From positions 175,398,001 through 175,462,000 of the forward strand of contig CM097883.1 of assembly GCA_044892505.1 (NCBI GenBank): DNA of 64,000 bases, read 5' to 3'. Position 1 is the first letter of the stretch; the number at the start of each line of letters is the position of its first letter. Under the pieces are notes generated by a model that saw only the letters and a program-made list of their open reading frames with translations, did no database searches and was not told where the DNA came from. The DNA comes from Schmidtea nova. Its lineage: Eukaryota. This document shows positions 24,221-61,903 of the stretch, piece after piece. The translations under genes were made by a program, and so were the position numbers.

Positions 24221-24221
<1 letters not shown>

Positions 24222-24298
<77 letters not shown>
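24222..24298. repeat. (TA)n microsatellite
   Basis: Pure TA run. Confidence 0.99.
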
Positions 24299-24302
<4 letters not shown>

Positions 24303-26197: not shown

Positions 26198-27309
26198 ATC
26201 GAAATTAATTGAGATACCGTGCTCTATTCGAATTTTTTTGATACAAAGTATAATAAGGCTTACTGCGAATAATCAATATTAAATTTCACCAGGTGATTGA
26301 TACCATAGTCAACCAAAAATTTAGTAATATCACGGTTCAAAGTGAATGGATTAGAACAAGAGACCTAACAGATGGTCATGCGATAAAATGCGATCTAATC
26401 AATTATAGAACTCCTATTGATAAAAATTAGACTACTTTAGAAATATTAATGATAGACTCGCTGCACAGCTATGATAATTCTAAGAGGAAAAGGATAAATG
26501 GCAAAATAATGGGGAAACCACGATTAATCGATTCTTATCGTGTCTATAGAACATATAAATTTAGATGAATCAACTGAAACAGAAAACCGGAATCATAATT
26601 TTCCCGGAAAACTCGAATACAAATGGTAAATTACTTCCTGGCCCAACTAGAAAGACGTTTCGATTTAAAGGGGTGGAAATCGTTCCCTCGCAAATATTAC
26701 TTAGGTTAATCATAAAACGGTTAATCAGGATAAATAACCAGCGCTTTCGAGAGCGGAAGACTCCCCTAATCGATTTACGGAAGAATAGCGGTTGTCAGGT
26801 CACCTGGTACGGTTCTGCTTAGTGGCCTATAAAGGTCCAAGGGATTAATGTGTTACTCCCGGGATTTACTGGGAAATTACTTAGCTTTACATTTCCCGAA
26901 TCCCGGGAATTTACAAAATTTTCACGGGATTTTCTTTGTGATAATATCCATTCACATCTGACAAGAATCCAAGTTAAATTTACAACTTTCGCACAAAATT
27001 CTGATAAAAAACAAATTGGCATCACTGACTTTGATATTTTTCTATTGATAAATGACAATTAACATTTTACTCTTGAGAATTTCAATTCAATATTTATTTT
27101 TAAATATTGTAGGATTGTAGCTACATTTCAATATATGTAGCTACAAATAATAAAAATACCACGTTCATTTTAAACTTTCCAAATTTCAATGGAAACTTGC
27201 ATCTAAGTTATTAATTATCATTTTCATAGCAAATTATTGAATTACAATTACAAACAACTTCTTTACTTAAAAAGCATCCCACATTTGGAATAAAATGCCT
27301 AATGAAAAA

Positions 27310-28285
27310 AAAGAAAGTAAGTGAAAGTCACTGAAGTATGGAAATATTTTTCAAAGGTTAAAGATGAATATACAAAGTGCAACAAATTTGAAAAAATAAT
27401 AGGCTGTAAAGGATCATCGACTAGTGGCCTGTCGTCATTTACTTTTATTGCATAACAATAATATTAATAAAAGATAATGTCAAGAAGATGAAATTTTGTC
27501 AAAAAAATAGTTCAACAAAAGCTATCGATTCTTAGTTACGCGTCTGTGTGCGCGTTGTGTTTGTTCTGTCTGATCTAATACGCGTCTGTGTGCGCTGCAG
27601 TTTTATCTTATGCTTTGTCGCGTCTGTATGCGCATTTTCTTTTAGTGCAGGTGGATTTATTAATTGATTTCTAAAATTTAGTTTGTTTATTCGATCCAAT
27701 TTGGATATTGGAATTTCGTGGTTTTTTTAAATTTAGCTTAGTAAGAGTTATTGGAAATTGAAGATTGCGATTTGGGACGATTTGGTTTTAGTTGCATTTG
27801 AGGATTGACTATAAATGCCATCTGTAGTAGTCAATTCCTTCGACAGTGTCTTTGTTCCCGAAATTTTAATTTACCGAAAGATAGGAAATGTTTTATGAAT
27901 TTAATTTATAATTATTTTGAATTTGCAAGAAACGCAGTGATTGATGAAATTTGGATACTACAAAAAACGGAACTCGATGAGTGGTCAAGTTTGAAAAATC
28001 GAAGATATATGAATGTTAACCTACATTTTCAGTGAAACATAATACATCAAAATTGATGGCAGTTGCCCCGCTGAAGTGGTTGTTAGCTTAGTTGATAAAC
28101 CGAATTTGGTCTATCACAAAAGGATATCGTGGTGTCAACAACTGATGGAGCACCTCTTATAGTAAAATTTGGGCGAATATTACAATATTATCAGCTGTGT
28201 TACAGTCACAACATTCTTTTGACTGTACTTGATATTATTTATTAAAGGAAGACTGAAAATAATAATGAAGCTCAATCATATAGTG
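27310..28285 (+). pseudogene. hAT-A transposase relic, 5' part (BED finger and DG/CxxH region)
   Basis: EVWKYF...KCNKFEKIIGCKGSSTSGL BED-like; VVSTTDGAPLIVKFG...LCYSHNI; interrupted by an insertion at ~27535-28040. Confidence 0.6.
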
Positions 28286-28559
28286 CATTGATTCTTAAAC
28301 TGTAATCCGCGGACTCTATTCAAGTGGTCCGCGAAGAAAAAAATGAATGATGTAAAAAAATAATACTAAATATGTTGTTAAAATTAGTTTCAATGTGAGT
28401 AATGAAAAAAAATTATTTTGACATTTTTTAAAATTTTCAAAATATGAAAATATTTTTTTAAATAATCCTTAAATTTGAAAAAAATCTAGTAGACCGATAA
28501 TTATATTTATTGTATAATTATAAAAGAAAATTTTATTTCTAATGGAAATTAGTTCTATT

Positions 28560-31310: not shown

Positions 31311-31321
31311 GATGGTGGTAA

Positions 31322-31325
<4 letters not shown>

Positions 31326-31409
<84 letters not shown>
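31326..31409. repeat. (TA)n microsatellite
   Basis: Pure TA run just outside the hAT-B right end. Confidence 0.99.
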
Positions 31410-31411
<2 letters not shown>

Positions 31412-32899
31412 AATTTCGCTTGCTGTTTTATTAGCGCGTTCAATCGAATTGTCTAGAATGAATTTCTCGATTTTTTCCAAAATTAAATTTAACAATTTTA
31501 AGGAAAACTAAATTATTATTTTGTGCAAAATTTTTATAAAAATTTAAATAATTTTATTTTAATCTAAAATTTTATTTTTAAATTAAAGTTTTACTAATTT
31601 AATTAAATTTGCTAAATTTTTATTTAAATCAATTTTCTTTAATATTCTGAGTTTTTAAGGTAAAATTGAAATATTCTTTTTGAAAATGTGTAAATTTTCC
31701 TAATTTGTAATTTTTTTGTAATTGTTGTTTTTATGTCATGTTTTTAACGTGTATACTTGATGCGCTTTTGTTATTTTTTTTATTTTTAAACGTTTGTTAT
31801 TTAATTTTTTGATTTGTTCTGTTATTACTTTGTTTAATTGGTGTTTTTCATGATAGAATTTAAATTTACTTCTAACTAGGTAGGAATTAGTACAGATAGA
31901 GCACGTGCTATGTCGGGAAGACTAACTGGTTTGATTACAGGAGCCAGAGAAAACAATTCTTCAATAAGTGACATCACTGTTTTATTCATCGAGCATCTTT
32001 AGCTGGTAAGAAGATGCCAGAAGATCTAAAATAGTGATGGGTTATTATTCTGTTTAAGATCGGTTTACTGATCTGACTCATCGTGTCCTTTAATTATCGA
32101 AATCAATAAAACCCAACACAGAACAATTTATTTAACGTCACCACAAATTACACTTCTGTTATTCACTAGGAAGTACAAACTCGACAATTTGTATTCTCTT
32201 CCGGATTCGGTTTGATTTTCTAGTTATGATGGTTATAAAATATTTTCCTCACTTTGTCTCTTCGGTTTTCGCAAGATCTCTCTTTGTTAATTTTCAATCA
32301 ATTTCAATTCTTTATGTTTTAAGCTCTTAGTTTGTCGGCCCCGTCCTCTGCTTTGCGCTACCTTTTTGTCCTCTCGCAAATGACAATTAAATTTTACCAA
32401 TAGCTAAAAGTTACCCAATCTCGGCTTAATTGGTCTAACAACAAATTATTGTGAGTGCGCTCGGGTGGCTTTTCCCTAATTGTCCTGCGCAATCTCCCGA
32501 CTTTGATCTCTCGGGGTCTCTACTGCGCTCGGGCTTTCCTCATTGATTGAGTTTCCCATTGAGAGATTAATTAATTTTAATTAGGTTGTTTTTATTATAA
32601 CTTTTTCTGGGGACCCCTTAATAAATTTCTATTATTATTTTTGGGTTTGTCTTTTGATTTGGCATTCAACCATACCCATTTCCCCAATGAATATTAATTT
32701 TAAATTTTGATAAATTTTAATTAATTTTTTGCACTTTTATTTATTTTGATATTTCGTTGCTTTTACTATTATTTCTTGTTACTTTTGTGATTTTATACTA
32801 ACCCCAAAATACCTCACCCCTTTATTTAAGATTCGTCTCGAATCTAATTTTTCATTTATTAAAATGGTCAAGTACACTCAATACCATAAATGTGGATGA

Positions 32900-35197: not shown

Positions 35198-35764
35198 ATG
35201 GATCGAATAGCGACTAACTCAGACGCAGACGACAGCCGCCAGTTACAAAGGCGGATTAAACTACTGGAGCGACATATACATCGTCAGGAAGTGGAAATCG
35301 ACACTTTGAGGAAAACCTGGTTTGACCCCGAAAGGGTTAAGGCTATCCAACAGCATAGATATCGAGCAAAAAGAGCACTGGAAGAACAGGCACGAGAGAC
35401 AGCCGCTGTCCGGCTAGAGTTAAACAACTATCTGCGAGTATCAACCCGAAAATTCATTGAACAGCAGTTGCGACTGTTAATTCGAGCCAGCACTTTTGAT
35501 CACCGGGTAACTTTTACGCGTACAAGCAGCGAAACGCAAACAGAGGAAAACCTCGCACCTGTCATGGGGAAGGAAGCACAGAATACTAAATCAATACCAG
35601 AAGGGTCATCGCGGACAAAAAAGAGAAACCACCTGGGCGCGAAAAGACGCCGTGAAAGAAGGGCCTACGCGGAGAGGCTCGGGATCGAAGTCGATCTCCT
35701 AAGCGGGCTAACTGAAAAACAGCTCGTTAACGTTATTAACACGAATATATTTTTAGATAAATAA
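35198..35764 (+). CDS. 188-aa coiled-coil/basic protein of unknown function, probably TE-encoded
   Basis: Intact GC-rich ORF in AT-rich context; TTTCAG acceptor directly before ATG; heptad-rich N-term, SSETQT, KKRNHLGAKRRRERR. Confidence 0.55.
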   Translation: MDRIATNSDADDSRQLQRRIKLLERHIHRQEVEIDTLRKTWFDPERVKAIQQHRYRAKRALEEQARETAAVRLELNNYLRVSTRKFIEQQLRLLIRASTFDHRVTFTRTSSETQTEENLAPVMGKEAQNTKSIPEGSSRTKKRNHLGAKRRRERRAYAERLGIEVDLLSGLTEKQLVNVINTNIFLDK

Positions 35765-36053
35765 ATGTATTAGTCAAAGGTTGATTTGATAATTCATTGA
35801 TAATTCATTCGAAAATTCATTGAACAGCAGTTGCGACTGTTAATTCGAGCCAGCCCTTTTGATCACCGGGTAACTTTGACGCGTACAAGCAGCGAAACGC
35901 AAATGAGAAAGGATTGATGGGAATAGTTGCGAATAGTGTATGTTGACAAGTGAAACCATTAATTAAATAAACGTGGCCGGGAACCGATGAACACGAATTA
36001 CAATTACCCTAGGACGAAAGATCTGAGCAAGCGAGTTAAGTTGGGACCAGAGG

Positions 36054-36539
36054 AAATCCGCATAAGTCTTCTATCGACAGCGGTGGACCCGTAGATAAAT
36101 GAGTGAATAGTAGCCGCAAGGTTGCTCACCTGCCTCATCATTCTACAACGGTGATACATTACCGACATGACGAGTAATTAGGGACGAGTCATGGGTATCA
36201 GCGGGGTGAATATTTTTATGTTGGTGAGATTTCCCTAATAATAGCATCAATAAAAATCTCTATTTAAAAACCATACCAACGAACCAGCAATAATATAAAT
36301 CCGCATAAGTCTTCTATCGACAGCGGTGGACCCGTAGATAAATGAGTGAATAGTAGCCGCAAGGTTGCTCACCTGCCTCATCATTCTACAACGGTGATAC
36401 ATTACCGACATGACGAGTAATTAGGGACGAGTCATGGGTATCAGCGGGGTGAATATTTTTATGTTGGTGAGATTTCCCTAATAATAGCATCAATAAAAAT
36501 CTCTATTTAAAAACCATACCAACGAACCAGCAATAATAT
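36054..36539. repeat. Exact 243-bp tandem duplication next to the gap (likely assembly artefact)
   Basis: 36054-36296 = 36297-36539; 75 bp from the N run. Confidence 0.85.
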
Positions 36540-39869: not shown

Positions 39870-40785
39870 TTAAACAAGAAATCTCAAACGCCTTGATTTT
39901 TGTTATTTCGTTTTTTCAATGTTTTTTCCTCTGAATTTGATACAATTGTTACATTTTACATATAAATAAATTAATAATAAATATTTTGTTTATAATAAAA
40001 TATCAAACAATTTGTGTTATTTACGTGGACTGTTGTTAATGTTTACTGTTTTTAATTTTAAGTTAATACTTTAAATAAATTTACCCATACTGTTTTATCA
40101 CAAGTGAAACGGTACCGTGATATGTAGCTAAAACAAAAATAACCAGCTGCTCAAACAACACTTTACCTAACAATCTCAAATCTTATGAATGATTTATTTA
40201 TCTGTAATTTTTTTCTCGAAAACGGCACTATAATTGTTTCTAAAGATTGGCGTACTACCATTTTCCGATATGAAAAAAACGATCTAGATAGGTCACGATT
40301 TTGGGAAAATTTGTTAAGGACCTTTATTTTGGAAAAACATTTTTCGTATGAATGACGTCACAAATACTTGGAATAGTTATAATAAATCTTTAATCGCGGT
40401 ATGTTGCACGTAGCGTTTTCCCGTGTGTAACGACAAAATAGCTTGAAAGTTCTGTTACCACCTGAAAATTGTACGTTGCACGTATAATGTTGTGTGGAAA
40501 GAAGCAATTAACGCTCCTGATGAAACTTCTATAAGTCTTGATAGTGACACCGATGACAGTTACCTCGGCAACATCGATTTTTAAGTCTCAGCTGAATAAA
40601 ATAAAAATTTTTTTGCGAGAGACTAAAAACTGTCTTTCTTTTCACCGAGCGAAAATCGGTCCCCTAGTTCTGTTGATAAATACCGAAAAATGATAACAGT
40701 TGAGTGTAGAAATATTATATAGAAAATGTTAGTGTTTTATTTATTCGAAAATTATAAATTAAAATAAATAAATATAATAAATTAC

Positions 40786-41168
40786 TTGCTGTAAAATATC
40801 CAACAACTGCAAGTGCTCCATTCTGGAGAAATTATAATAATGGTTGAAATCCAATAAAACGATTTCCTTTGTATGAATTTGTAGAAATTTTTTTATTAAT
40901 TTCAATTCATTCAAAACTGGCTGACCATACAAACTGTGACAACTGTAAATGATTCCATTTTGTCGATTGACAGCTAAACGAATATCAAAATATCTGATTC
41001 CTTTGCTAAGCTGTTCCGAAGTATTTAAATCTTGAGTTACTGCCCATCGATATATAATTGATTTAGCAAAACGGCCGAGTAATTGCGTAAGATAAAAAAT
41101 AACGGTATTTGCGTCAGGAGAAATATTTGACGTGCGTTTAATTGAATATGTAAATGAATCATGGCAGC
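40786..41168 (-). CDS. PLCXD: PI-PLC X domain-containing protein, exon 2
   Basis: (G)CHDSFTY...RWAVTQ...EQLSKGIRYFDIR...CHSLYG...KEIVLLDFNHYY; both catalytic His retained; AG at 41169-41170; GT donor at 40785. Confidence 0.92.
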
Positions 41169-41218
41169 CTAACTGGCATTTAGACATAAAAACTAATTAT
41201 CAATCCATTAGTTCTAAC

Positions 41219-47093: not shown

Positions 47094-48091
47094 TGTTCGG
47101 TTCGTATCAGTGGTTTACGACGAACACAAAAAAAAATATATATATTTGATTTGATTATCGGACTCCAAACGATAATCCGCTTATATAATTATAAATAAAA
47201 TATATGTTTTAGGTTGGGTGTAAAGAAAACAAAACCTATTCTTTTTAATAAGATTTATTGCGATTTATGTATAACAATGTACAATATATTAAAATAAAAT
47301 AGCTGCAAAGCAAAAGTTAGAAAATCGGTTATTCAAACCGTCCTCAGAGTTTAAGAACGAAAGCTGGACCTAAAAGGCTCAACAGCTCCGACTAAATGAA
47401 AGGACAAAAGATGAGGGCTTTCCCGGTAGTTTAATCGCGATAGTGACAACCCAGAAATGGTTGTCACTGTGACCTAATAATTTCCCTTCTAATAATTTAT
47501 TATTTAACGAATTTACTGAAGGGGAAAAATAGTAATATAACTATTTCCCCGTGATCGATTTATAGAATTAAAGCAAACTAGAAAATTTACCAGCTAATAA
47601 AGATTATTCCAATTTCGGGAAATTATCACAAATGAAATTCAAGCTAAACTTCTCGTAATACTTCTGCCGTAAAAATTAATTTCTCCAATTCACAAATCTG
47701 TAAAACTTAGATTCTAAAATTCACTTCTGTCCAATTTATGTTTTGTAATTAGTTTAAATAGTAAAGTACTGCCTACACGGCCACGCACTAAAAGTTTACT
47801 ATTATTTTTAGTAATTCTTATTTACTATTTTTAATCTAAATTTATTATTATTATTACTATAATTAGTGTATATCTATTTAGAGCAGTTATTAATTACTAT
47901 ATTTATTTCTTTTCTATTTATAGTAATTATTTGTTACTAAAATTACTAATTAAGTATTTAATTATTACTATAATTATTATCTATCTATTTATAGTAATTC
48001 TTAATTGCTATTTATATTTATTTATTTATTTATAATATTTAATTACAAATTTATACAAAAACCCGAGATCCCTTGATCTCGAACCCTAACA
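47094..48091 (-). repeat. 3' LTR (998 bp)
   Basis: By eye identical to 60903-61903 except for a 1-nt shorter A run and one fewer TA unit. Confidence 0.97.
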
Positions 48092-48396: not shown

Positions 48397-50433
48397 CTAG
48401 TTATCCTTTGCGAATAGGTTTTGAGCTGCTCTCTTGCGAATATGCGCTTGCTCGTTCTTGATGCGATCTTCCACTATATCTGGTCTATAACTGACCACTA
48501 ATGTTTCGCGTGTTTCGACTTCCTTATATACCAAAGACGAAATCACGTATGATTTTCCGTTGGCCTCCAATACGCCATAGTAAGGGAAGTTTGAAACTGA
48601 TGATTGGTGTACCGGTTTCCCGTCGTATTCTTTTATCCGAGGTACCCAATTTCTCTCTGGTCGCTGCCAAAAACTAGGGTCTTCATTGTCCAAATCCTGG
48701 GGTGTCTTTGCTGAATTTCCTGTTCCAACGAAATCCCCTTCTCTTATAATAATAGGTTCGCCCTTAACCTCAGGAATCTGTTCCATATCGGGTGGAACGA
48801 ATGCTGTTTCGATTAAATCTTTGTCTTCCGTCGAGAGGAGATTTGGTACTTTCTTCTTGATCTTTAGATCTTGTAACCTTACAACAGGTTCTTGACTTTT
48901 CGTTGGGGGTGACTTTTCTACTGAAGTCAATTTTTTAAAAGTCTTAGTAACTTTTTCCAAGAGCTTGTTCTCTTTCTTTGGTGGATTTTCTGGCACGATC
49001 TTTGTAATTGTACGGCTGTCTCCGTGTAAAGTTAAACGCATCTCTGTTTGCTCCTCACCCTCGCTTTCGCAGGTGGCGTAATCGTCTTCATCAGCTAAGG
49101 ATATAGCTGGAGGGGATAGTGATTCTTCCTCAACTATCTTTTGCAATTTGGTTGATAATGGTTGTTCCTGGGGTAAGCTCTCAATAGCTTTCCTTTTACT
49201 CGTTTCTTGTGGCTGTATTGTATGAACCATTTTGACTTCTGATGTAATTGTCCCACTACGATTACCTGGGGTAATGTCATCTACCCAAACTTCTCTCAGT
49301 TTAAGGTAAATATTACGTGTCGTTTCCACGTCATTTTCCGTTTTCAGATCTGAACGGTTTAGTTCTTCCTTTTCGAGAATTGACTTTGATAAATACGCGA
49401 GTCGATAATGTCCGTTACATTTCTTTAGTTCTCTCGCTTCCAGGCATTTTGCTGCTCCTAGTTCCCTAATGCCCAAAACTCGTTGAGGGTGTAACTGGAC
49501 TGCTTCCAAGAAATCGTTGACTTGGAGACCTATTAGAATTTTCCCGTCACATAATTTTCTAATACGGTCTGCACAATCCTCTCCATCAAATTGTCCAATG
49601 ATTTCTTTTTCGGTCATACCATGCGCGTGCGATTGGTAATGTTTGACCTGGTTTCTGGGTGTAACCACCGTGTTTAATATTAAATCACCACAGTAGTTTG
49701 CTACCGAAACAGCCACCAAAGCTGGCTTTAAATAATCTCGCAAAGTTGCGTAATGCGCTGCAACAAAAATTGACAATCTATCTTCTTGATTGGGGTGCAG
49801 ATTCATCCGAACAAAGGATTTGAATGATTTGAGATCGTTCTCATTCACATTATAGGTCCAGGCAGGCTCATTTTTCCACAATGATTGCACTGCCTTGCTG
49901 GGTTCCAAAATCTCTAATACCACAATAGTATTATATCCGTCACATTGGATGGAGATATTCTTTTCTCTGCCATCTCCGTTACTAATTTCTAGAGTTGATT
50001 CTGGTTGAAGTAGGATGGGTCCTGTGGCTCCTGCCATGAAGATTGTAAAGGGTTTATTGATCGCGTGAATCAGGAGATGGTGAGTAAATGTTGATCTGTT
50101 AAATTCCGCCATGTGTTCAGTCAACCGGGTGTTCTCACGGCTGGTGATTGTGACTATGCACATTTGTCTCTTAGGTGATCCAAGAAACTTAAAATTGTTC
50201 GGGATGCCGGTGCAGTGCCCGTAATACCAATAGCGACGACCTTTCCGTGCCTCTGCGGATATCGCTTTTTCGATGTTTCGATAAATCAGTTTTTCCTTCT
50301 GTATTGTTTGCACATCGATAGTGCTGTAACGCTGCTTGTATTGTGACACTTGATGCTTCATATCTGAAAGAAAAATAATTAACGTTAATATCAGATATAC
50401 TGATATGCCAATATTGGCTAAAAAGAAATGCAT
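48397..50433 (-). CDS. ORF3 accessory protein (probable start ATG 50361, 654 aa): degenerate DEDDh exonuclease plus other domains
   Basis: ALVAVSVANYCGDLILNTVVTP...HGM...GKILIG...L..L...IL...ENDVETTRNIY follows the REX4/ISG20-type pattern; TTTTTCTTTCAG acceptor 2 nt before ATG 50361. Confidence 0.85.
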   Translation of the reverse strand: MHFFLANIGISVYLILTLIIFLSDMKHQVSQYKQRYSTIDVQTIQKEKLIYRNIEKAISAEARKGRRYWYYGHCTGIPNNFKFLGSPKRQMCIVTITSRENTRLTEHMAEFNRSTFTHHLLIHAINKPFTIFMAGATGPILLQPESTLEISNGDGREKNISIQCDGYNTIVVLEILEPSKAVQSLWKNEPAWTYNVNENDLKSFKSFVRMNLHPNQEDRLSIFVAAHYATLRDYLKPALVAVSVANYCGDLILNTVVTPRNQVKHYQSHAHGMTEKEIIGQFDGEDCADRIRKLCDGKILIGLQVNDFLEAVQLHPQRVLGIRELGAAKCLEARELKKCNGHYRLAYLSKSILEKEELNRSDLKTENDVETTRNIYLKLREVWVDDITPGNRSGTITSEVKMVHTIQPQETSKRKAIESLPQEQPLSTKLQKIVEEESLSPPAISLADEDDYATCESEGEEQTEMRLTLHGDSRTITKIVPENPPKKENKLLEKVTKTFKKLTSVEKSPPTKSQEPVVRLQDLKIKKKVPNLLSTEDKDLIETAFVPPDMEQIPEVKGEPIIIREGDFVGTGNSAKTPQDLDNEDPSFWQRPERNWVPRIKEYDGKPVHQSSVSNFPYYGVLEANGKSYVISSLVYKEVETRETLVVSYRPDIVEDRIKNEQAHIRKRAAQNLFAKDN

Positions 50434-50547
50434 AAATCTCGATTTACGGGATCTACTTATGCTGTAAGTTAATGCTACTCGGAGCTCAACAAGATTATAG
50501 ATTTTAATATATATATAAATACAAATATGCGATTTTATCTGTAATTG

Positions 50548-53500
50548 TCATAATCTCGTCATCATAATCCCATCAACCGACTCAATAGCCTGATTGAAGA
50601 ATAATTTCATCCAAACTCCCATTGCTATCAATGTAGTGATCATAGCTAATACTGCTGACGTAATAATCCATACCCCAATGGGTAATTTTCCCAAGTGAGT
50701 AATGGGGTTTACTTCATTAATTCCACACTGACAACTTTTAATATAGCTTTCTGTTGATACCGTTGGTTTTACCATTTTCAATCCTTTCAATCTCTGCCAT
50801 ATTGCAGGATGAATGACGTAACTTTCTTTCCGTATCAAGGATGTAACTGATTTCGTTGTCGTCGATGATTGAGGTAATTTCAAAGAGATTACTTCATAAA
50901 ATACCTCATTCCATTCATCGACTCCGGGCTTTTGTTTATTATTCATATAAGTGATATGAGCTTCCCACTCCACTGAGCTGTTCCACTTGAGATTTTGTTT
51001 CTCAATATCTTCGTTTAGCCACAATTCTTGTACTATTTCCTTGTCGGAGTGGATTTCTATCTTTACTCCATCCACTCCTTGTTTTGGTTGACTGAAGGTA
51101 ATCATACCTTGTTGGATATTTATCCTAACTTTCCTTTTGAAATCTGCTGTCTTCAGCTTCCATTGTGACTTGGAAAAATCTGACCATCGTCCAAACATAA
51201 AATGTTGAACAAGTATATCTAATAAATATTCCTTTTCTGCTCGTAAGTCCTTTATGACTTTCACTCTTGTGTTTGAATCCAATGTAAAATGGAAACAACG
51301 TCGTTCACAAAACGAGAACTTGAATTTGGTATCATTTTCAGCTAATGATATTATCCTAAATTCCTGGAAAGATCTTCTGAATGCGAGATCTTGGATTTGT
51401 ACCGCTGTTGGAACAAATGTTTTTACACATGATATGAGGCAACTTATTATTACCAAAAACGTAACTGATTTTGGCACGCCTCTTGATCGTAATGGATATC
51501 GGTCTGAGACTGTTTCTGACCCTTTATTCTCCTTTTTCTTAATCGAATCTTTCTCCGTGACCGCAACCTTCTTGCATCTGTTAGCATGTACCATTATTGG
51601 TTCAGCTTTTCTATTTGCTACTAATTGCAAGATTAAATTCGTGTCTGTGGTTCTCAAAACCTCATACGGTCCTTTGAAGTTTCTCATTAATTTAGGTGAT
51701 AAGCCCTTTTTATTATAATGGCTTTCCAACATCACCTTGTCTCCAACTAACATGCCATGTCCTTTGGCTTTCTTATCATGATAATCTTTCGACGCTTCCT
51801 GACTGAATTTTATACTAAGACCTGCTTTTGTCCATGCTTCTTGCATTCTTTCTCTCATTTCCATGAGATAATCCTCTTGGTCTAAATACTGCGTTGCTTT
51901 TGGGAAAAACAACAAGTCTATAGGCATTTTACTTTGCCTTAAATACATGAGATAGAACGGCGTTTGTCCCGTACCCTCATGAACAGCATTTCTGTATGCG
52001 AATAAGCATGATGGAATATGTATATCCCAATCCGTTTGCCCTGAATTTACGTATGATGCTAGCATATTTGCGAGCGTTCCGTTAAATCTCTCTACCAATC
52101 CGTCTGTTTGTGGATGATACGGAGAGGTATTCAATTTTAAAATGTCGAAATAATCATTTATTCCTTTTAACAGATTACTCATGAAATCTGCTCCTCTATC
52201 TGTTAGTAGTTTTGTAGGTACTCCATACCTAAAAACAATTTGCTCTACGAAAATCCTGGCTATCGTATCTGCCTTGTGATTCGGTATCGGATAAGCCTCC
52301 GGCCATTTTGTCAGGTAATCGCAAAATACCAATATGTATTTGTTACCACTATTTGATTCTTTGAATGGCCCTAAAACATCCATTGCCGTCATTTCCATCG
52401 GTGTGGATGGTACTGGCATTGGTTTCATTGGTACATGAGGTTTCTTCCCCGTATTTCTTCTGGTGATACAGATCTTACATGTCTGACACCATTCCTGTAC
52501 GTCTTGTTTGATTGTCGGCCAGAAAGATTTCTGCTTCAACCTTGACAATGTTTTCCTGGAAGACAAATGCCCTCCCAGTGCTCCATCATGATATTGTAAC
52601 ATCAAAGCTTCGCGATATTTCTTAGGGACCATTATGACATTATCCCTTACATCCACATATTTGACTAATCCTTCTTCTAAGATAAATTTGTCTCGATTTT
52701 TCTCCCAATATTTATTAAATTCCGTCGGTATGAACTTTGCTTCTAAAGCCTGTCTGATTTGGTTTATCTCTTCATCCGATTGTTGTGCTGCCATTAAATC
52801 CGCGAGTCTGTTTGCTTCTCTTGTAAGTGCGAAGATTGTTCCTTCTAATCTTCCTTCTTTGACATCTTCTGCTTCATCACCCTGGTCCATTCGAGAAAAT
52901 GCATCTGCATTCCCATTTTGATGTCCTTTTCGGTAATGTATTTCGATGTCGTACGGCTGCAAGATTAATGCCCATCTAACCAATTTTGATGTATCCATAG
53001 TATGCTTTGTTAACCACTGTAATGGTCTATGATCCGTATACACAATGATCTTTCGACCCCATAAATATGTCCTGAATTGGTGTATAGCATACACAATTGC
53101 TAATGCTTCTAATTCGATAACTGCGTAATTCTTTTCATGTGGTTTTAATCCTCTGCTAGCATACGCTATGGCATATTCGTCTCCTAGGTCATCTCTTTGA
53201 CCTAACACAGCACCAATACCCCGAGTGCTGGCGTCTGTCATGACCAAAAATTGTTTCTCAAAATCTGGGAACCGTAATATAGGAGGTTCCACGAGCATCC
53301 TCTTTAGCATATCAAATGCTTCCTGTTGCTCTTTTCCCCATACAAATTTGACATTTTTGCCCTCTAATTGTGTTAAAGGAAATGATATTGCTGAAAAGTT
53401 CCTGATGAACTTCCTGTAATATCCCACTAAGCCCAGAAACCCTTTAATATGTTTGACTGTCTTTGGCTCTGGAAAATTCTTTGCTTTCTCAACATTTGCT

Positions 53501-55068
53501 GGATCTGGTTTTACTCCATCCTTCGAGATAATGTGACCGACATAGACTACCTCTGATTCGGCCCATTTACATTTCGATGGTTTTACCTTAAGATTTGCAT
53601 TAATTAACCTTTTGAATACGTCCTCTAAATGTTCTAAATGTTTTTCCAAATCTGGAGAAAATACTATGATATCATCTATGTATACCATTGCATGATGAAC
53701 ATCCATTAACATTAGATTCATGGCTCTTTGAAACGTTGCCGGCGCTCCTGTGAGACCAAATGGCATTACTGTATATTCGAAGTGTCCAAGGCTTGTAGAA
53801 AAAGCCGTAATTGGTATTGTCTCCTCTTTTAACTTGATTTGGTAAAATCCCTTCTGAGCATCCATCACTGAGAAATATTTTGAATTTCTCCTGCGTCCGT
53901 AAATGTAATCCAGTAATGGTAATGGGTGACTATCCTTGCAAGTTGCTTCGTTTACCATTCGATAGTCGTTGCATAGTCGTACCGTTCCATCCTTTTTGGC
54001 CACCACTATCATTGGTGACTGGTATGGTGATTTACTATGCCTGATGATGTTATGTTTTAACATCAGTTTTACCTGCTTATCGACAGGTTCTTCCAAGCTA
54101 AACGGAATTCGATACGGTCTCAGTTTTATTGGTTTCGTATTGTTAAGAACAATTTCATGTTCCAACAAATTCGTCTTTCCCAAATCATATTCGTGCTTGG
54201 CGAATACCTGATCATATTTTCTTAATAACATGTTGACTTGGATATTCTCTCTTCGTGAAAGAGCTTTACTATTTGCCGTTGGCGCATCATAGTACTCGAT
54301 GTCTGGTTCTCTATTCTCTGCCTTCACTGTCAGGACAGATCCCCCAATCGGTAATTGATCCGACTTTGATACTCTCCCTACTCTTGTATCTGGATACAAT
54401 TTTAATGGTTTTATATCTAAATTGGCTACCCGAATTGGTATTCTGCCATTTTCAACTTTACCAACGCTATGCGTAATTGGTAGATTATATTTTGCTGAGA
54501 ACCTTTCATCTGGTTCGAATACTACTTCTCCTTCCCACTGTTTGCTAGTAGACACGAAACATACTGTTTCTGCTCTGGGTGGTATTATCATCGTATGGTC
54601 GATGAAAACTGTATCATCATTATAAACTTTTCTTTTCTTACCGATTGATCTAACTAACAATCCGGTAGCACAGTCAAATACAACTCCTTTTAATCTTCTT
54701 AAAAGATCCATTTCTAGTAGACATTCTACTGGACAAGTTCTCATGACTATAATATCATGACGAAATTCTTGGTCACATAGCTTGATGTTGCAAGCTAGAG
54801 TACCGATAATATTCAAGGATGTGCCTGTAGCACCTGTTAGCGAAACTCTTGAGGTTTCCATTGATTCCAATTCTTTTTGATTTAATAGTGTTGCCTCTAT
54901 GATAGTGCCGTCTGCTCCTGAATCTATCACTGCATTAACTGTGTGTCTGTTTATTTTTATCTTTATCATGGGTTTCTTATCCAAGTTTACCCCATTTGCC
55001 ATCAAAATAGTAGCATGCGTTATCCCGATGGTATTTGCTCTGAATTTCTCTGCTTCATCTGCTATCAC
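50548..55068 (-). CDS. pol: Pol polyprotein: aspartic protease, RT, RNase H, integrase, plus C-terminal type I membrane protein
   Basis: IDSGA; RLCNDYR, MPFGLTGAPATFQR, YIDD; TDAS...ELEALAI; HHCC, DVLGP, TDRG, DGLVERFNGTL, GPY; frame opens at GTG right after a TGA, first ATG at 55002. Confidence 0.97.
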   Translation of the reverse strand: MIADEAEKFRANTIGITHATILMANGVNLDKKPMIKIKINRHTVNAVIDSGADGTIIEATLLNQKELESMETSRVSLTGATGTSLNIIGTLACNIKLCDQEFRHDIIVMRTCPVECLLEMDLLRRLKGVVFDCATGLLVRSIGKKRKVYNDDTVFIDHTMIIPPRAETVCFVSTSKQWEGEVVFEPDERFSAKYNLPITHSVGKVENGRIPIRVANLDIKPLKLYPDTRVGRVSKSDQLPIGGSVLTVKAENREPDIEYYDAPTANSKALSRRENIQVNMLLRKYDQVFAKHEYDLGKTNLLEHEIVLNNTKPIKLRPYRIPFSLEEPVDKQVKLMLKHNIIRHSKSPYQSPMIVVAKKDGTVRLCNDYRMVNEATCKDSHPLPLLDYIYGRRRNSKYFSVMDAQKGFYQIKLKEETIPITAFSTSLGHFEYTVMPFGLTGAPATFQRAMNLMLMDVHHAMVYIDDIIVFSPDLEKHLEHLEDVFKRLINANLKVKPSKCKWAESEVVYVGHIISKDGVKPDPANVEKAKNFPEPKTVKHIKGFLGLVGYYRKFIRNFSAISFPLTQLEGKNVKFVWGKEQQEAFDMLKRMLVEPPILRFPDFEKQFLVMTDASTRGIGAVLGQRDDLGDEYAIAYASRGLKPHEKNYAVIELEALAIVYAIHQFRTYLWGRKIIVYTDHRPLQWLTKHTMDTSKLVRWALILQPYDIEIHYRKGHQNGNADAFSRMDQGDEAEDVKEGRLEGTIFALTREANRLADLMAAQQSDEEINQIRQALEAKFIPTEFNKYWEKNRDKFILEEGLVKYVDVRDNVIMVPKKYREALMLQYHDGALGGHLSSRKTLSRLKQKSFWPTIKQDVQEWCQTCKICITRRNTGKKPHVPMKPMPVPSTPMEMTAMDVLGPFKESNSGNKYILVFCDYLTKWPEAYPIPNHKADTIARIFVEQIVFRYGVPTKLLTDRGADFMSNLLKGINDYFDILKLNTSPYHPQTDGLVERFNGTLANMLASYVNSGQTDWDIHIPSCLFAYRNAVHEGTGQTPFYLMYLRQSKMPIDLLFFPKATQYLDQEDYLMEMRERMQEAWTKAGLSIKFSQEASKDYHDKKAKGHGMLVGDKVMLESHYNKKGLSPKLMRNFKGPYEVLRTTDTNLILQLVANRKAEPIMVHANRCKKVAVTEKDSIKKKENKGSETVSDRYPLRSRGVPKSVTFLVIISCLISCVKTFVPTAVQIQDLAFRRSFQEFRIISLAENDTKFKFSFCERRCFHFTLDSNTRVKVIKDLRAEKEYLLDILVQHFMFGRWSDFSKSQWKLKTADFKRKVRINIQQGMITFSQPKQGVDGVKIEIHSDKEIVQELWLNEDIEKQNLKWNSSVEWEAHITYMNNKQKPGVDEWNEVFYEVISLKLPQSSTTTKSVTSLIRKESYVIHPAIWQRLKGLKMVKPTVSTESYIKSCQCGINEVNPITHLGKLPIGVWIITSAVLAMITTLIAMGVWMKLFFNQAIESVDGIMMTRL

Positions 55069-55414
55069 TCAATTTTGGATTATATTCCTTGAATTTAGCT
55101 TTTATTGCTTCTAACGACTCGATAGGATACAGTTTCCCTTCATTTTCTAACGATAATGATATGCTTTTACCTGTTTCTCGAGCATCTTTGTCGGGAATTT
55201 GTTGATGTTTAGAAATGTACATTTTGTTTCTTGGTATGGTTAAAGCATAACTTGGCTTGCCTTCTCCTGATGTCTTTTGAAACTCTGGCGATTCCCCCTT
55301 TGGTGCTGTTGGTAAGCTTCTAAGATATGGCAATTGCATATATCTTGGGCTTCTTTTCAATCTAGGCGATGTTGTATTTAATTGCAAATTTCTGGTCTGC
55401 ACTATCGTATTCAT
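55055..55414 (-). CDS. 119-aa linker ORF overlapping the end of ORF1 and the start of pol
   Basis: Overlaps ORF1 by 53 nt and pol by 14 nt; preceded by a TTTCAG acceptor; no recognisable domain. Confidence 0.45.
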   Translation of the reverse strand: MNTIVQTRNLQLNTTSPRLKRSPRYMQLPYLRSLPTAPKGESPEFQKTSGEGKPSYALTIPRNKMYISKHQQIPDKDARETGKSISLSLENEGKLYPIESLEAIKAKFKEYNPKLSDSR

Positions 55415-58400
55415 CTTCTGAAATCATACTTTTGTCGAAAATCTGTTTTGTCGCTTCGTAAGGTGGTTGATAATCTCGATATTTCATTTTCCTTAATTGA
55501 TGATTCGGTTTTTTATTGTAGTTTCTTTTTCGACTTCTACTTTGCCTCTGAACTGTATTAAGAGAGTCTCCATTACCTCCTCCTTCCGAATTGTTATCGT
55601 CCCGATAACTTGTATTACCCTCCATTTCGATTCCAATAATCTCGTGTTTTACCAAGCTTCTCTGTTTGATTGTCTTTATTTCTTTACGATGATGTTTAAA
55701 CAATGCAAATTCCGCACACATAGGACACAATCCTAGTATCAACTTCCAAGACCATCCACCGATTTTGAATATGCTGTATGTGGAAATTAATTGTGTTATT
55801 ATTAACTTTAGAATTACGAATATTGCATATATTCCGGAGCAGCCTGCCACGAATATACCAAAATTGGTAAACCTTCCCCATATTTTCATCATCACATTTT
55901 TAGCTGCTTCTTTATAATGATCTGGACCGAATAATAAATTGTAATCTGGTCTCATTTCGTTTGCTTGGTAAATTGTTCTTATGATTTCAGTGATACCTCT
56001 TTCTCTTACTTGAGGGAATAGCAATGTCTGTCTTGCCTCCTCAATGTCTGCTGGAGTGTAAATTCCTCCTTGTGATAATTCATCGAGTGATTTAAATTCC
56101 ATGTTTTCCTCGAGTTTCGTGACTTCTAATGTTTCCACCTTTCTATTAGATGGTTTTCTGTCAGGTAATGAGATCCATCTATCATTTACCTTGTATAACG
56201 GTGATATTGCTGGATTGCAAATTGAAGGTTGAGGCTTTTGTTTTTCATCCAAAAGTCTCCTCGTTACTGGCATTACAAATCGTATTTTGTTTTGATATGA
56301 CACTGGTAATTCTAGAGTACATTCGTTATACCGTGTTAATTGTACCTCTATGGGTTGACATTGATAGCTGTATATAGCTTCCCCCATAATTCTGCCAAAC
56401 ATTCCATCTTCTAGCAACATAGGTGTCACTAGATCCGGATTCACGATTGATATCGCTAATCGATTTCGAACTATTTCGCGATTTAGTTTGCAATCATTGA
56501 GTATTACTTCCTGATACATTTCCTGCATTTGTCCTTGCAGATCATGATATAAATAATCTATTTTATTATTTATATAGTTCGTGATTTTGATATCCTGGCT
56601 GTGAATATTCTTGGCTTTTTGGATAAATGTTTTTGACAAATATAATCCTTTATAGTTGGTCTCGTACACCACTTTTCCGCATTTTGTCTTCTTATCTTTT
56701 CTGACAAATCTGATTGCATCTTTCTTATCTTCTGATACTAATACTAGAGGTGTGATTTCCTCACTAATATCCTCTTTTTGCTGTTTGTTGATCCTTTTCA
56801 ACGTCTTTTCTTTATCCCAAATTCTTTCTCTTTTGGGTAAATCTCGATACTTTGTCCCGTTCAACTTATGGAAATTAATTTTCTTTAGTAATGACAATTC
56901 GCAATGGTCTAGTATTTGATCGTATAATAATGTAATGACCCCTGTTCTGCAGCTTCCAAATTTCGCAAGGCACTGAGGGTGTGCCATTAATCTTCCTGAT
57001 AATACATCGAAAGTTCCTTCGTATTCTCTTAATTCGATTGAATAGTCCTCGATATCTACGACAAAACTTACCAACTCCGATCCGCGAGTTTTCTTTCTTC
57101 CCGTACAGGTACCATCTGATCCGATTGATCCTCCTCGTGTAATGGTTACTCCCAGTGTTTTTCCTACTTCCGCGGCGATGGTTACCTCGTTATCGATTCT
57201 TAAAGTACCTTTTCGAAAGGCGTCTAGACAATCCTCTGGTAATATGTTGACAGGTCTAGGTATTAGAGTGGCTGATAGAAAAGCTGTATAGCTGTGTGAA
57301 CCACAATAATATTCAAATGTCGCTCTTTGGACTCTACATTCTCTTATCTTAGTTCTGAAGAATTCACTTTCTTGGTAGACATAGTATTCGACCTTTTCTC
57401 CTGTTTGGACTTTCTCTGGATATGCCTCTTTGCACTCAATTGCATCCACGAGCGAATATATCCGAGCTAACTTTGGATCACTGCAATCAAACGCTGTCAT
57501 TGTGTTTGTCTGTTTCATTATCCCCATCATTACTAAAAACATTAATATCATATTCGTCATATTCCCCATTCCTCCATTTCCGAGGTGGTTGTTATTCATA
57601 ACCTCTTCCACAAATTCATATCGTGGTTTATGTTTCTCCTCTTCCCAGAAATTATTTTCACTCATCCACGTTCCGAGATAATGCTCCGTTATCTCCGTGA
57701 TCTGGTCTATTTCTCGATTAATAAGTTTCTTCTCATTGCCTGCGCGGGCTAAGGCATCTTGAATCAACATAGATAATGCTGTCACTATTTTTCCTTTAGA
57801 TAACCCATCTTGTATGAGTGTCTCTAACATACTCTGTATCTCGTTTTGAGGTACCATTTTAGGTAATCTCCTCATCGTCTTCGCGATTGACTGTGTCACT
57901 TTATCCACTTGAATTCCTTTAATCCGAGTGATCTGCCATTCCGGCTTTAATATTCCTATGATCTGTTTTAATCTCTTCCATGTCAGAGATTTTTCTGGTA
58001 TATGTACTCCCTCGTCTCTCATATCAACATCCCTGGCTATTCCTGACAGGGTTTTCATCTGAACCTGTTTAATGGTTTCTTGGTTTAATTGCTCCGTTGG
58101 GGGAGGTTTCATTTGATCTTTCCTAGGCCTTCCTCGCCTATCTTTCTTTGTCTGCCATGCTGGCCTGATAGTTTCTACCGCCTGAGAAGTTGAAGCTCCC
58201 ACGTTAGTTTCCTCATTATTGAGTCTGATTTCTTCTTCTCCGTGATTATCGGCATCGATATCTACATTAAATGGTTGTGTTTCGACGTTACCAGTGACCA
58301 TTTCATCTGGTAACCGTAATGCTGACCATTGAGATTCAGGTGGCTCTACGGGAATGATTGCTACCGTTGTAGTTTCAAATGGTAGACATCCCACATCTAC

Positions 58401-60821
58401 TAAATATTCATCATCATCCACTTGTCCTCCATGAATCATAATCAAGAATATACCGGTAGTCTGCCCAGTATCTATTAAATCTTTTCTCAACGTTATCACT
58501 TTGCTAAAACAACGATATAATCTCGTCATGGGTTCTTTTCCCGCTATTCGAATGTCTAAAGTTATCATGCCTTGTCGGTGTGCTTGATGACGTATTGCTG
58601 TTCCATTTTTCCTCATTAACATTTTTATTTCTGTTTGAAAAGAACTAGTTTCTTTTACTACAGGTAGTAATATAGGAATTATACTCTCCAATGATTCTAC
58701 TGGTATGCGCAATACCAACATCCAGTCTAATATTTCCTTGATTGTTTCTCCATCCCTCGGAGATTTCTGCAACTCTATCTTTAGACGTTGCTCTATTTGT
58801 TGGACTTCCTCCAACTGTGCAATTTCCATTTGTGTGAGTAGAAACACACTGTCTTGATCCACTACTGGGACCGATATTCCTGTCAGTTTTGTTGTGAGTT
58901 TCGTTACCCTTCCTGGTAATACACCATTTTGTAGTAGTGTTTCCCCAACTACTAACTTTTCTCCATATAGATAAAAATCATATCTATTATGTTTCAATTT
59001 CATCATTGTATCTGACAACTTATCTGTTCGACATCTTACATTCATGTCGATGTTAAACTCCTGCTCCTGAGGAAGTTTTATGTTTAAATGCGAATCCTGA
59101 AGATCCCATTCATGCTCCATTGCTGTTCCTATCTTTCGTAGGATTCTGTGTATGTCGCTATGATACTTTGGATCATCTTCGACCTGAGATATTAACTGTA
59201 ATATCTTTCCAATTTCACTATTCTTGATATCACCTTGTGATAATTTCTCTAATTCTCTAGTCAGTCTCTGCTGATACTCATATCTGGAATCCACCAGTTT
59301 TAAACATTTTGCTAGGGTATCTGACCCTTTCTTGGCCTTTGTTTCCTTGAACAAAGCCTGGTCGAACTCGCTCAGTATGGTACTCATACTGGGTTCGTCA
59401 TCATTATCAGAATTTGTTTCTGATTCTATTACCTCATGATTCTCGCTGCTGGAATCCATGGGTTCACTATTTCCTTGCTCGTCTGTGTAAGCATCATAAT
59501 TTTTCTCAGCTGAAATCATCAAAACTGTTCCTTGCCCAACTGTGTGAGCATCATCGCTTTCCTCAATGGGATTCATTATAACTGTTCCTCGCCCATCCAT
59601 GTGAGCATGATTTTTCTCAGCTGAAATCATAAAAACTGTCTCTTGCCCAACTGTGTGAGTCTCATTCTTTTCCTCTATTGTATTCATCAAAACTGTTCCT
59701 CGCTCATCTGTGTGAGCATGATTTTTCTCAGCTGAAATCATAAAAACTGTATCATCTCGATCCATTAGCCGTGCTAATCGATTTTTCTCCTCCTGGATTT
59801 CCATTTCCAGTTGTTGCAAATACGTCAATTCTTTATCGTGATTGACCATGAACGTAGTTTTTGGCTTGCTGATATTACCACCATTGGTAGTCCTATTATT
59901 CGTATTATTACTCTGATTTTGAGGACACGACCTCAGGATATGCCCGAATTTTCCACATCCGTGGCATTTTATCTTTCCTGATGAATTTACATCATCCCTT
60001 TTTATATTAAAATTCCCATTCGTTGGGAGATTCCTAACTCTACAAACGGAAGCAACATGCCCTCTGCGTTTGCATTTATCACACTGCAAGTTCGTGACTC
60101 TACAGTTCTCAACACTATGATTATTCATACCACATTTAGTACACTGAATACCCCTACGAGTATCAGCTACCTTCTTACTGTGGCAATCTTTTGATATATG
60201 CCCCTTCTTATGGCAGTTAAAACATTCAATTGCTGGCTTCTCATTATTTACCATAAATGAGGTAGCCTTTTCTAAGCTGCTTTCGATTACGACAGCTTTT
60301 CTTGTTAATTCCCAAAAATCATCTCCCGTGTGGAGAATCAATGCATTTCTCATTACATTTGTGAATCCAGCTAATAATTGGTCTTTAACCATAGCTTTAG
60401 TTGCATCATTCCAGGTAGTTCTGAGCCCAAATGCTCTTTCGGCTAATAACAATAATTGATAGGAAAATTCTCCTACATGCTCATTGGCATTCTGTTTTCT
60501 ATGGTAAAATTGTTGTCGGAAAATTCTGCTTGAATCTCCCGGTAATATTCTAGCCGTTAGTGATTCTCTCATCTTTTCCCATGTAGCTGGTTTATCTGCT
60601 GCTGGTAACGCCATAATATCATTGTAGTTTTCCCTTGCCATACCCTTAAGGTAAATTGGCAGTCTTTGTATCATTATTGCATCTGGATACCCATAGGCCT
60701 TTGCCATCTGATAATACTCTGACATAAACTCCGGAAATTCCCCTGGATCTCCGCTAAATGCCTTGACAGGTAAAGCGGGATATCTAGCAAAAACATTATT
60801 CTCTTCAGCCATGTCCTCCAC
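55362..60821 (-). CDS. gag: ORF1 (1819 aa): Gag capsid, 4 CCHC knuckles, spacer with UBL-like domains, chuvirus-type glycoprotein
   Basis: Capsid FSGD...Q..NEHVGEF; CX2CX4HX4C x4 at aa 200-299; internal hydrophobic signal aa ~1088-1108; AFDC, YCGSHS, GEAIYSYQC...ECTLELPV; TM at aa ~1651-1675. Confidence 0.95.
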   Translation of the reverse strand: MEDMAEENNVFARYPALPVKAFSGDPGEFPEFMSEYYQMAKAYGYPDAIMIQRLPIYLKGMARENYNDIMALPAADKPATWEKMRESLTARILPGDSSRIFRQQFYHRKQNANEHVGEFSYQLLLLAERAFGLRTTWNDATKAMVKDQLLAGFTNVMRNALILHTGDDFWELTRKAVVIESSLEKATSFMVNNEKPAIECFNCHKKGHISKDCHSKKVADTRRGIQCTKCGMNNHSVENCRVTNLQCDKCKRRGHVASVCRVRNLPTNGNFNIKRDDVNSSGKIKCHGCGKFGHILRSCPQNQSNNTNNRTTNGGNISKPKTTFMVNHDKELTYLQQLEMEIQEEKNRLARLMDRDDTVFMISAEKNHAHTDERGTVLMNTIEEKNETHTVGQETVFMISAEKNHAHMDGRGTVIMNPIEESDDAHTVGQGTVLMISAEKNYDAYTDEQGNSEPMDSSSENHEVIESETNSDNDDEPSMSTILSEFDQALFKETKAKKGSDTLAKCLKLVDSRYEYQQRLTRELEKLSQGDIKNSEIGKILQLISQVEDDPKYHSDIHRILRKIGTAMEHEWDLQDSHLNIKLPQEQEFNIDMNVRCRTDKLSDTMMKLKHNRYDFYLYGEKLVVGETLLQNGVLPGRVTKLTTKLTGISVPVVDQDSVFLLTQMEIAQLEEVQQIEQRLKIELQKSPRDGETIKEILDWMLVLRIPVESLESIIPILLPVVKETSSFQTEIKMLMRKNGTAIRHQAHRQGMITLDIRIAGKEPMTRLYRCFSKVITLRKDLIDTGQTTGIFLIMIHGGQVDDDEYLVDVGCLPFETTTVAIIPVEPPESQWSALRLPDEMVTGNVETQPFNVDIDADNHGEEEIRLNNEETNVGASTSQAVETIRPAWQTKKDRRGRPRKDQMKPPPTEQLNQETIKQVQMKTLSGIARDVDMRDEGVHIPEKSLTWKRLKQIIGILKPEWQITRIKGIQVDKVTQSIAKTMRRLPKMVPQNEIQSMLETLIQDGLSKGKIVTALSMLIQDALARAGNEKKLINREIDQITEITEHYLGTWMSENNFWEEEKHKPRYEFVEEVMNNNHLGNGGMGNMTNMILMFLVMMGIMKQTNTMTAFDCSDPKLARIYSLVDAIECKEAYPEKVQTGEKVEYYVYQESEFFRTKIRECRVQRATFEYYCGSHSYTAFLSATLIPRPVNILPEDCLDAFRKGTLRIDNEVTIAAEVGKTLGVTITRGGSIGSDGTCTGRKKTRGSELVSFVVDIEDYSIELREYEGTFDVLSGRLMAHPQCLAKFGSCRTGVITLLYDQILDHCELSLLKKINFHKLNGTKYRDLPKRERIWDKEKTLKRINKQQKEDISEEITPLVLVSEDKKDAIRFVRKDKKTKCGKVVYETNYKGLYLSKTFIQKAKNIHSQDIKITNYINNKIDYLYHDLQGQMQEMYQEVILNDCKLNREIVRNRLAISIVNPDLVTPMLLEDGMFGRIMGEAIYSYQCQPIEVQLTRYNECTLELPVSYQNKIRFVMPVTRRLLDEKQKPQPSICNPAISPLYKVNDRWISLPDRKPSNRKVETLEVTKLEENMEFKSLDELSQGGIYTPADIEEARQTLLFPQVRERGITEIIRTIYQANEMRPDYNLLFGPDHYKEAAKNVMMKIWGRFTNFGIFVAGCSGIYAIFVILKLIITQLISTYSIFKIGGWSWKLILGLCPMCAEFALFKHHRKEIKTIKQRSLVKHEIIGIEMEGNTSYRDDNNSEGGGNGDSLNTVQRQSRSRKRNYNKKPNHQLRKMKYRDYQPPYEATKQIFDKSMISEDEYDSADQKFAIKYNIA
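59440..59760 (-). repeat. In-frame 111-bp (37-aa) tandem repeat in ORF1, ~2.5 copies
   Basis: CTCAGCTGAAATCAT at 59505, 59616, 59727; protein TVFMISAEKNHAH..RG / TV(L/I)MN.IEE...HTVGQ. Confidence 0.95.
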
Positions 60822-60881
60822 AACTTTTGTCTTTTTAGGAGCTATTTTGTATATAACAATATGTTCACTGATAATAATTGT

Positions 60882-60899
60882 ATCACGTCGGGCTCACCA
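60882..60899 (-). promoter_or_regulatory. Primer-binding site, tRNA-Trp-like
   Basis: Minus strand TGGTGAGCCCGACGTGAT, 3 nt from the 5' LTR; differs at one position from the tRNA-Trp PBS TGGTGACCCCGACGTGAT. Confidence 0.85.
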
Positions 60900-60902
60900 A
60901 AA

Positions 60903-61903
60903 TGTTCGGTTCGTATCAGTGGTTTACGACGAACACAAAAAAAAAATATATATATATTTGATTTGATTATCGGACTCCAAACGATAATCCGCTTATATAA
61001 TTATAAATAAAATATATGTTTTAGGTTGGGTGTAAAGAAAACAAAACCTATTCTTTTTAATAAGATTTATTGCGATTTATGTATAACAATGTACAATATA
61101 TTAAAATAAAATAGCTGCAAAGCAAAAGTTAGAAAATCGGTTATTCAAACCGTCCTCAGAGTTTAAGAACGAAAGCTGGACCTAAAAGGCTCAACAGCTC
61201 CGACTAAATGAAAGGACAAAAGATGAGGGCTTTCCCGGTAGTTTAATCGCGATAGTGACAACCCAGAAATGGTTGTCACTGTGACCTAATAATTTCCCTT
61301 CTAATAATTTATTATTTAACGAATTTACTGAAGGGGAAAAATAGTAATATAACTATTTCCCCGTGATCGATTTATAGAATTAAAGCAAACTAGAAAATTT
61401 ACCAGCTAATAAAGATTATTCCAATTTCGGGAAATTATCACAAATGAAATTCAAGCTAAACTTCTCGTAATACTTCTGCCGTAAAAATTAATTTCTCCAA
61501 TTCACAAATCTGTAAAACTTAGATTCTAAAATTCACTTCTGTCCAATTTATGTTTTGTAATTAGTTTAAATAGTAAAGTACTGCCTACACGGCCACGCAC
61601 TAAAAGTTTACTATTATTTTTAGTAATTCTTATTTACTATTTTTAATCTAAATTTATTATTATTATTACTATAATTAGTGTATATCTATTTAGAGCAGTT
61701 ATTAATTACTATATTTATTTCTTTTCTATTTATAGTAATTATTTGTTACTAAAATTACTAATTAAGTATTTAATTATTACTATAATTATTATCTATCTAT
61801 TTATAGTAATTCTTAATTGCTATTTATATTTATTTATTTATTTATAATATTTAATTACAAATTTATACAAAAACCCGAGATCCCTTGATCTCGAACCCTA
61901 ACA
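60903..61903 (-). repeat. 5' LTR (1001 bp)
   Basis: See 3' LTR. Confidence 0.97.

Follow-up and report, generated by a model that had tools for sequence, protein, structure and literature searches.

In a 64,000-nucleotide stretch of the Schmidtea nova genome (GCA_044892505.1, contig CM097883.1, positions 175,398,001 to 175,462,000; hereafter the window, whose own numbering is used below), a 14.8-kb long terminal repeat (LTR) element carries an extension of 309 residues and a stop codon, in frame behind its protease (PR), reverse transcriptase (RT), RNase H (RH) and integrase (IN) (50548-51477; all features of the element lie on the minus strand). The extension forms the final module of a single Gag-Env-Pol polyprotein encoded by this Ty3/gypsy element. 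It is also a selected protein-coding module, because it is intact in other copies, shows an excess of synonymous variants and has a low omega. Hydropathy, conservation among copies and the layout of relatives predict a type I membrane protein with a cleavable signal, an ectodomain, one transmembrane (TM) helix and a cytosolic tail. Apparently, a known kind of element, the GAG-ENV-POL errantivirus, has here an undescribed, clade-wide second membrane protein. We hold with middling confidence that this protein, likely freed by signal peptidase and bearing two predicted fibronectin type III (FN3)-like domains and a PDZ-type tail, serves cell-to-cell spread as an adhesion or attachment factor, with a cell-contact role that would position budding or transfer and gB-driven fusion.

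Layout and fold of the extension

Signal and TM calls were made by hydropathy and -3/-1 pattern checks. The second internal signal of the polyprotein (signal 2; extension residues 5-20, 51418-51465) includes the stretch VTFLVIISCLI, with a Kyte-Doolittle 11-mer value of 3.03 and zero charged residues, and cleavage is predicted after its -3/-1 site at VKT (residues 18-20). Ectodomain 1 (residues 21-110; 51148-51417) is likely FN3-like and contains the sequon NDT (residue 48) and an L..Y loop motif at residue 78; it has no confident fold, the predicted local distance difference test (pLDDT) score being mostly below 50. Ectodomain 2 (residues 111-204; 50866-51147) is a predicted immunoglobulin (Ig)-like beta-sandwich, nearest to FN3, with the sequon NSS (residue 166). 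It is followed by a stalk (residues 205-266; 50680-50865), under relaxed selection as judged from variants and sequence, and by a predicted TM helix (residues 267-289; 50611-50679) that is fairly polar (Kyte-Doolittle 19-mer 2.19) and modelled as a helix with pLDDT 84-94. Cysteines occur at positions 13, 17, 57, 61, 249 and 251, the last two in the stalk and C57/C61 in ectodomain 1. The 20-residue cytoplasmic tail (50548-50610, with the stop) terminates in MMTRL, whose T-R-L end is a class I PDZ-type motif.

The original prediction of a second type I membrane protein fused in frame after integrase is thereby borne out in layout, conservation and selection, and the signal-like stretch, both sequons, cysteines, TM and short tail are all as it described. 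Its serine/threonine-rich stalk holds for the first 12 residues (8/12), but the stalk as a whole is only modestly rich (24%).

None of the Pfam families matches the extension, PF24664, the family of the glycoprotein encoded by open reading frame (ORF) 1, included; at the Pfam level, this agrees with the dissimilarity to that glycoprotein noted earlier. The Fibronectin type III profile (PF00041) gave no match over the cut-off, and in the comparison of the extension with a host FN3 profile the shuffle count was 157 of 300. No similarity was found among 1.84 billion sequence representatives, a direct homologue search with the extension detected none, and no host donor gene was found among the genome matches, the representatives or with the host FN3 profile. 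Look-alikes of the whole protein are FN3 and cytokine-receptor-type membrane proteins (0.86-0.90), and moderate evidence suggests that the ectodomain resembles two FN3-type beta-sandwiches. The evidence favours this fold over the lectin-like or Methyltransf_FA resemblance proposed earlier, for which there is no Pfam match and which is absent from the leading structural matches; a sandwich of that kind may nevertheless be present.

Conservation and selection

A search of the 1.25-Gb genome with a 1.4-kb query gave 184 candidate matches, of which 40 were scored, all 40 with 97-100% identity over the query. The copy set comprises 29 other copies, the best-scoring of the 184 candidates, and is hence biased to young copies. 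The extension is free of stops in 27 and of indels in all 29. With the window copy included, 30/30 copies share the same 30-residue junction peptide and the same MMTRL-stop end, so that other copies do continue past the integrase as had been anticipated.

Variant counts cover changes common to at least two of 28 copies (the window copy itself and L013 excluded). The extension has 50 synonymous and 12 nonsynonymous shared variants, where neutrality would give a synonymous share of 0.27. Constraint is strongest in the ectodomain and weakest in the TM and tail: omega is ~0.036 for signal plus ectodomain, equal to that of the RH-IN core, ~0.29 for stalk, TM and tail, and ~0.35, from nine variants only, for the linker just ahead of the signal. 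Codons 1-20 hold six synonymous and no nonsynonymous variants, and residues 21-200 hold 33 and 6, respectively.

One polyprotein

The element has three ORFs in the window, 55362-60893, 50548-55068 (PR, RT, RH, IN and the extension) and 48397-50547. The division between the first two is a break private to the window copy near 55060-55360, because other copies read straight through; frame comparison places the breaking stretch at 55060-55361. Among 84 near-full-length matches, 28 lie within frames of at least 3,340 codons, mostly 3,446-3,449, and two have a stop inside the match; the two frames of the window copy and the gap between them sum to that ~3,448-codon length. In all three copies fetched, Gag, Env, PR, RT, IN and the extension share a single frame, with hydrophobic peaks ahead of Env, at the Env TM, behind IN and at the last TM. 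The protein had been expected to be of low abundance; this expectation falls because it rested on the ORF1/ORF2 split, and in many copies a single frame runs from Gag and Env through Pol into the extension. Since Env has one TM and the four hydrophobic stretches alternate, we infer, also from the way in which signal peptidase processes viral polyproteins, a cytosolic position for Gag and Pol and a lumenal one for the two ectodomains.

A clade-wide slot with varied contents

Integrase searches yielded 22 long and 13 medium proteins, the latter mostly fragments with a start further downstream, and the integrases of relatives were placed in a 38-row tree. The window row sits in a 27-row group whose support (85/91) is below the tool's mark. 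Behind the integrase, a signal-like stretch is found in 25 of the 27 rows (weak in P0026 and two families of the same genome) and a second TM in 23; P0005 and P0025 end with neither. PF24664 lies ahead of the protease in twelve long group members and in P0035. Four further Env-before-Pol proteins that fall outside the group have a signal behind the integrase, followed in two by an Ig domain. In the two other families of the same genome, which have ~50% identity in Pol, the YPLRS motif is likewise followed by a signal-like stretch, ~330 residues, a TM and a tail that ends in ETFV; their post-integrase proteins give no tblastn match to the extension. The second membrane protein accordingly occupies a clade-wide slot filled with FN3-like repeats, a small cysteine-rich domain or, in more distant relatives, an Ig domain. 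The slot may be an older env position, because P0021 and P0022 appear to have the envelope itself there (PF24664 precomputed, order read from sequence).

Several further features were seen among these relatives. L061-L074 comprise two multi-copy families with frames of ~3,401 and ~3,393 codons and a three-domain version ending E-T-F-V, related to P0026. Extra aspartic-protease-like copies occur in P0003, P0004, P0007, P0008, P0011, P0013 and P0027-P0029, some between the integrase and the second signal, and ankyrin repeats in P0009, P0027 and P0029. In P0012, P0013 and P0034, a small cysteine-rich ectodomain fills the slot together with a long tail that bears a PP-x-Y motif. The post-integrase protein of P0015 and P0016 has an Ig domain; in these and P0017 it closes with a hydrophobic stretch and hardly any tail, resembling by eye a glycosylphosphatidylinositol-anchor signal.

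A class I PDZ ligand is a C-terminal [ST]-x-[VIL], and we take the T-R-L end of the extension, present in 30/30 copies of the window element, to be a candidate for one. Such an end occurs in 15 of the 23 TM-complete proteins, spread over four of the six sub-branches of the integrase tree, compared with 3.2% of internal tail tripeptides, and V, I or L is the last residue in 20 of the 23, whose tails otherwise look unalike. The motif was spotted post hoc and the rows are related, so that a nominal P value overstates the case. The envelope of human T-cell leukaemia virus type 1 (HTLV-1 Env) is reportedly a precedent for a PDZ-motif envelope tail.

Proposed mechanism and competing explanations

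In the proposed mechanism, Gag would be made in the cytosol, and signal 1 would then admit the gB-type ectodomain to the endoplasmic reticulum lumen. At the single Env TM the chain would come back to the cytosol, where Pol would fold, and signal 2 would re-enter the lumen, the last TM leaving the 20-residue tail cytosolic. Signal peptidase processes viral polyproteins; here it would cut behind both signals, releasing a glycoprotein of ~290 residues, and the protease of the element would free Pol from its two membrane tethers. We regard the threading and these cuts as very likely. The second protein would be made 1:1 with the fusogen, barring splicing or recoding. Its tail would then bind PDZ scaffolds at cell contacts and its FN3-like domains the surface of the neighbouring cell, whereby budding and gB-driven fusion would be brought to the contact site; this is the least certain step. 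The predicted layout matches a minimal adhesion molecule. Single-pass adhesion molecules and receptors of hosts, with FN3 or Ig domains, likewise have a signal, beta-sandwich domains, a stalk, a TM and a C-terminal class I PDZ-type motif, whereas the extension shows no sequence similarity to a host FN3 profile or to the 1.84 billion representatives and is encoded inside a retroelement polyprotein.

Taken strictly, the two-component envelope of the original prediction would include a virion receptor-binding subunit that physically partners and triggers the gB-type fusogen, much as herpes simplex virus (HSV) gD, which has an Ig fold, serves gB. Such a subunit would fit the polyprotein and predicted topology shared with the fusogen, the suitability of Ig or FN3-like ectodomains for receptor binding, and slot contents that vary widely by lineage, as receptor-binding parts often do. 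We nevertheless consider it unlikely: the slot holds unrelated folds while gB stays alignable, which a fixed interface would disfavour, and many gB-type errantiviruses are reported, in the available text, with GAG, POL and ENV only (PMC13524379). Moreover, sorting in the producing cell would more readily explain the conserved PDZ-type end on the cytosolic side, a feature absent from the original prediction, which suggests a role at that cell's surface no less strongly.

Still less likely, in our view, is a surface modulator without an entry role, that is, a captured receptor- or adhesion-like decoy, an immune or signalling modulator or a superinfection block in the producing cell. The tail of only 20 residues and the failure of the above searches to find a host donor gene speak against it, as does the fusion to Pol across a deep clade, in contrast to ORF3, which sits behind a stop; in its favour are the FN3 and cytokine-receptor-type look-alikes, the long PP-x-Y tails of several relatives and the presence of ORF3 as another accessory gene. 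If the extension mainly tethered Pol or integrase to the membrane in assembly, or were the signal-and-TM shell of an older envelope gene, with a filler ectodomain, this would account for signal and TM being the sole features common to nearly all relatives, and an envelope seems to follow the integrase behind such a signal in P0021, P0022 and, in the available text, Atlas virus (PMC9094657). This explanation is improbable and already weakened by the selection pattern, in which the ectodomain is most and the TM and tail least constrained, although an origin at an old env position can hold together with the adhesion-factor explanation. Production mainly from a separate spliced or internally started RNA, with an incidental in-frame fusion, is very improbable: the element may splice, given the splice-acceptor-like pyrimidine run ahead of ORF3, but Met is absent from Pol residue 1159 up to the signal, the signal has no pyrimidine run immediately ahead of it, and the junction frame is open in 30/30 copies and most relatives.

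Relation to known elements

No description of a second membrane module behind the integrase was found in the literature searched. Sacco et al. (2022) reportedly treated non-canonical nematode endogenous retroviruses. The order gag, gB-type env, pol has been reported for Ty3/gypsy elements in Nematoda, Bryozoa and Platyhelminthes (PMC13524379, Chary and Hayashi, eLife 2026), and the 'ancient errantiviruses' described in the available text share with our element the PR-RT-RH-IN order, a gB-type env between gag and pol, LTRs and many near-identical copies. The planarian elements listed there are 14.5-18 kb long, compared with 14.8 kb here. A chromodomain is the only post-integrase module found in that text, which mentions no post-integrase membrane protein in GAG-ENV-POL elements (its figures, deposited sequences and long supplement cells could bear on the point); 'fibronectin', 'fused' and 'exonuclease' have no occurrences in its main text.

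As far as the available text of PMC9094657 goes, Atlas virus and related nematode belpaoviruses offer a parallel in plan: a stop-free single retroelement polyprotein with membrane proteins, two glycoproteins (GN and GC like), in frame after Pol. Atlas virus, however, is a BEL/Pao element with a class II fusogen, and both glycoproteins form one captured phlebovirus-like block after Pol, whereas here the fusogen precedes Pol, the second protein follows it and the two are unrelated. Bdelloid LTR retrotransposons capture genes for small TM proteins and DEDDy exonucleases, the latter paralleling the exonuclease-fold ORF3 here; in the text available, these extra genes are ORF3s and a true env is mostly lacking, with no occurrences of 'fibronectin' or 'immunoglobulin' (PMC5408684). 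Troyka elements are described, in the text available, as encoding no envelope (PMC12440569).

For the question of how env-carrying retrotransposons outside insects choose and reach their target cells, a gB-type fusogen alone gives no evident clue to tropism. An ectodomain that is small, expressible, strongly conserved and variable between lineages would allow a direct search for the host ligand and for the contact used between cells. The single frame suggests that Pol may be packaged on the cytosolic side as a tail of Env, in place of a Gag-Pol route, and published elements annotated as GAG-ENV-POL can be rechecked for the module at once. More broadly, and only as a tentative possibility, a broad lineage of enveloped Ty3/gypsy elements may use a polyprotein with four membrane passes and an RNA-virus-like organisation, with Pol between two membrane proteins. 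In these elements, an exchangeable host-like adhesion cassette (FN3, Ig or cysteine-rich) with a PDZ-binding tail would be the attachment protein that sets tropism and builds the contact through which gB drives transfer into germline or stem cells. Retroelements would thereby divide the work between receptor binder and fusogen as herpesviruses do.

The element and its surroundings

The element is a Ty3/gypsy LTR retrotransposon (Metaviridae), as given by its LTRs, target-site duplication and PR-RT-RH-IN order. LTR-LTR comparison placed the 5' LTR (~1.0 kb) at 60903-61903 and the 3' LTR at 47094-48091, with 99.6% identity between them and a 4-bp target-site duplication (CGTC on the plus strand) on either side. 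A primer-binding-site-like 18-mer read from the sequence (60882-60899) is presumably tRNA-Trp-like. ORF1 (55362-60893) encodes, from the ORF list, Pfam and hydropathy, Gag with zinc knuckles, a spacer, internal signal 1 (residues 1115-1125) and a gB-type fusogen with a single TM at about residues 1679-1700. The PF24664 viral fusion glycoprotein match upstream of PR (E 2e-90, Pfam profile) lies between gag and pol, and with the several intact, near-identical copies it fits a GAG-ENV-POL errantivirus with an HSV/gB-type env. Pol (51478-55068; ORF list, Pfam) comprises aspartic protease, RT, RH and IN and ends GPY ... RYPLRSRG.

The Gag-Env spacer, ~800 residues long (ORF1 residues 330-1110; ~57550-59900), contains 57-nt repeats (59438-59716), and weak ubiquitin-like matches occur at this position in the relatives P0009 and P0010. 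ORF3, with an ISG20L2-like exonuclease fold (48397-50364; E 3e-5), is under purifying selection, having 64 synonymous and 8 nonsynonymous shared variants. A strong splice-acceptor-like pyrimidine run precedes it, and the two related families of the same genome have counterparts with 27-32% identity downstream of the stop.

Elsewhere in the window, a probable host-gene exon (40759-41196, minus strand) gives a weak PI-PLC-X match (E 0.03). Inverted repeat arms of ~100 nt, microsatellite arms, a 243-nt tandem duplication and a 94-nt direct repeat (18245-21249, 24216-31412, 36054-36539 and 35447-35903) are probably other mobile elements or simple repeats.
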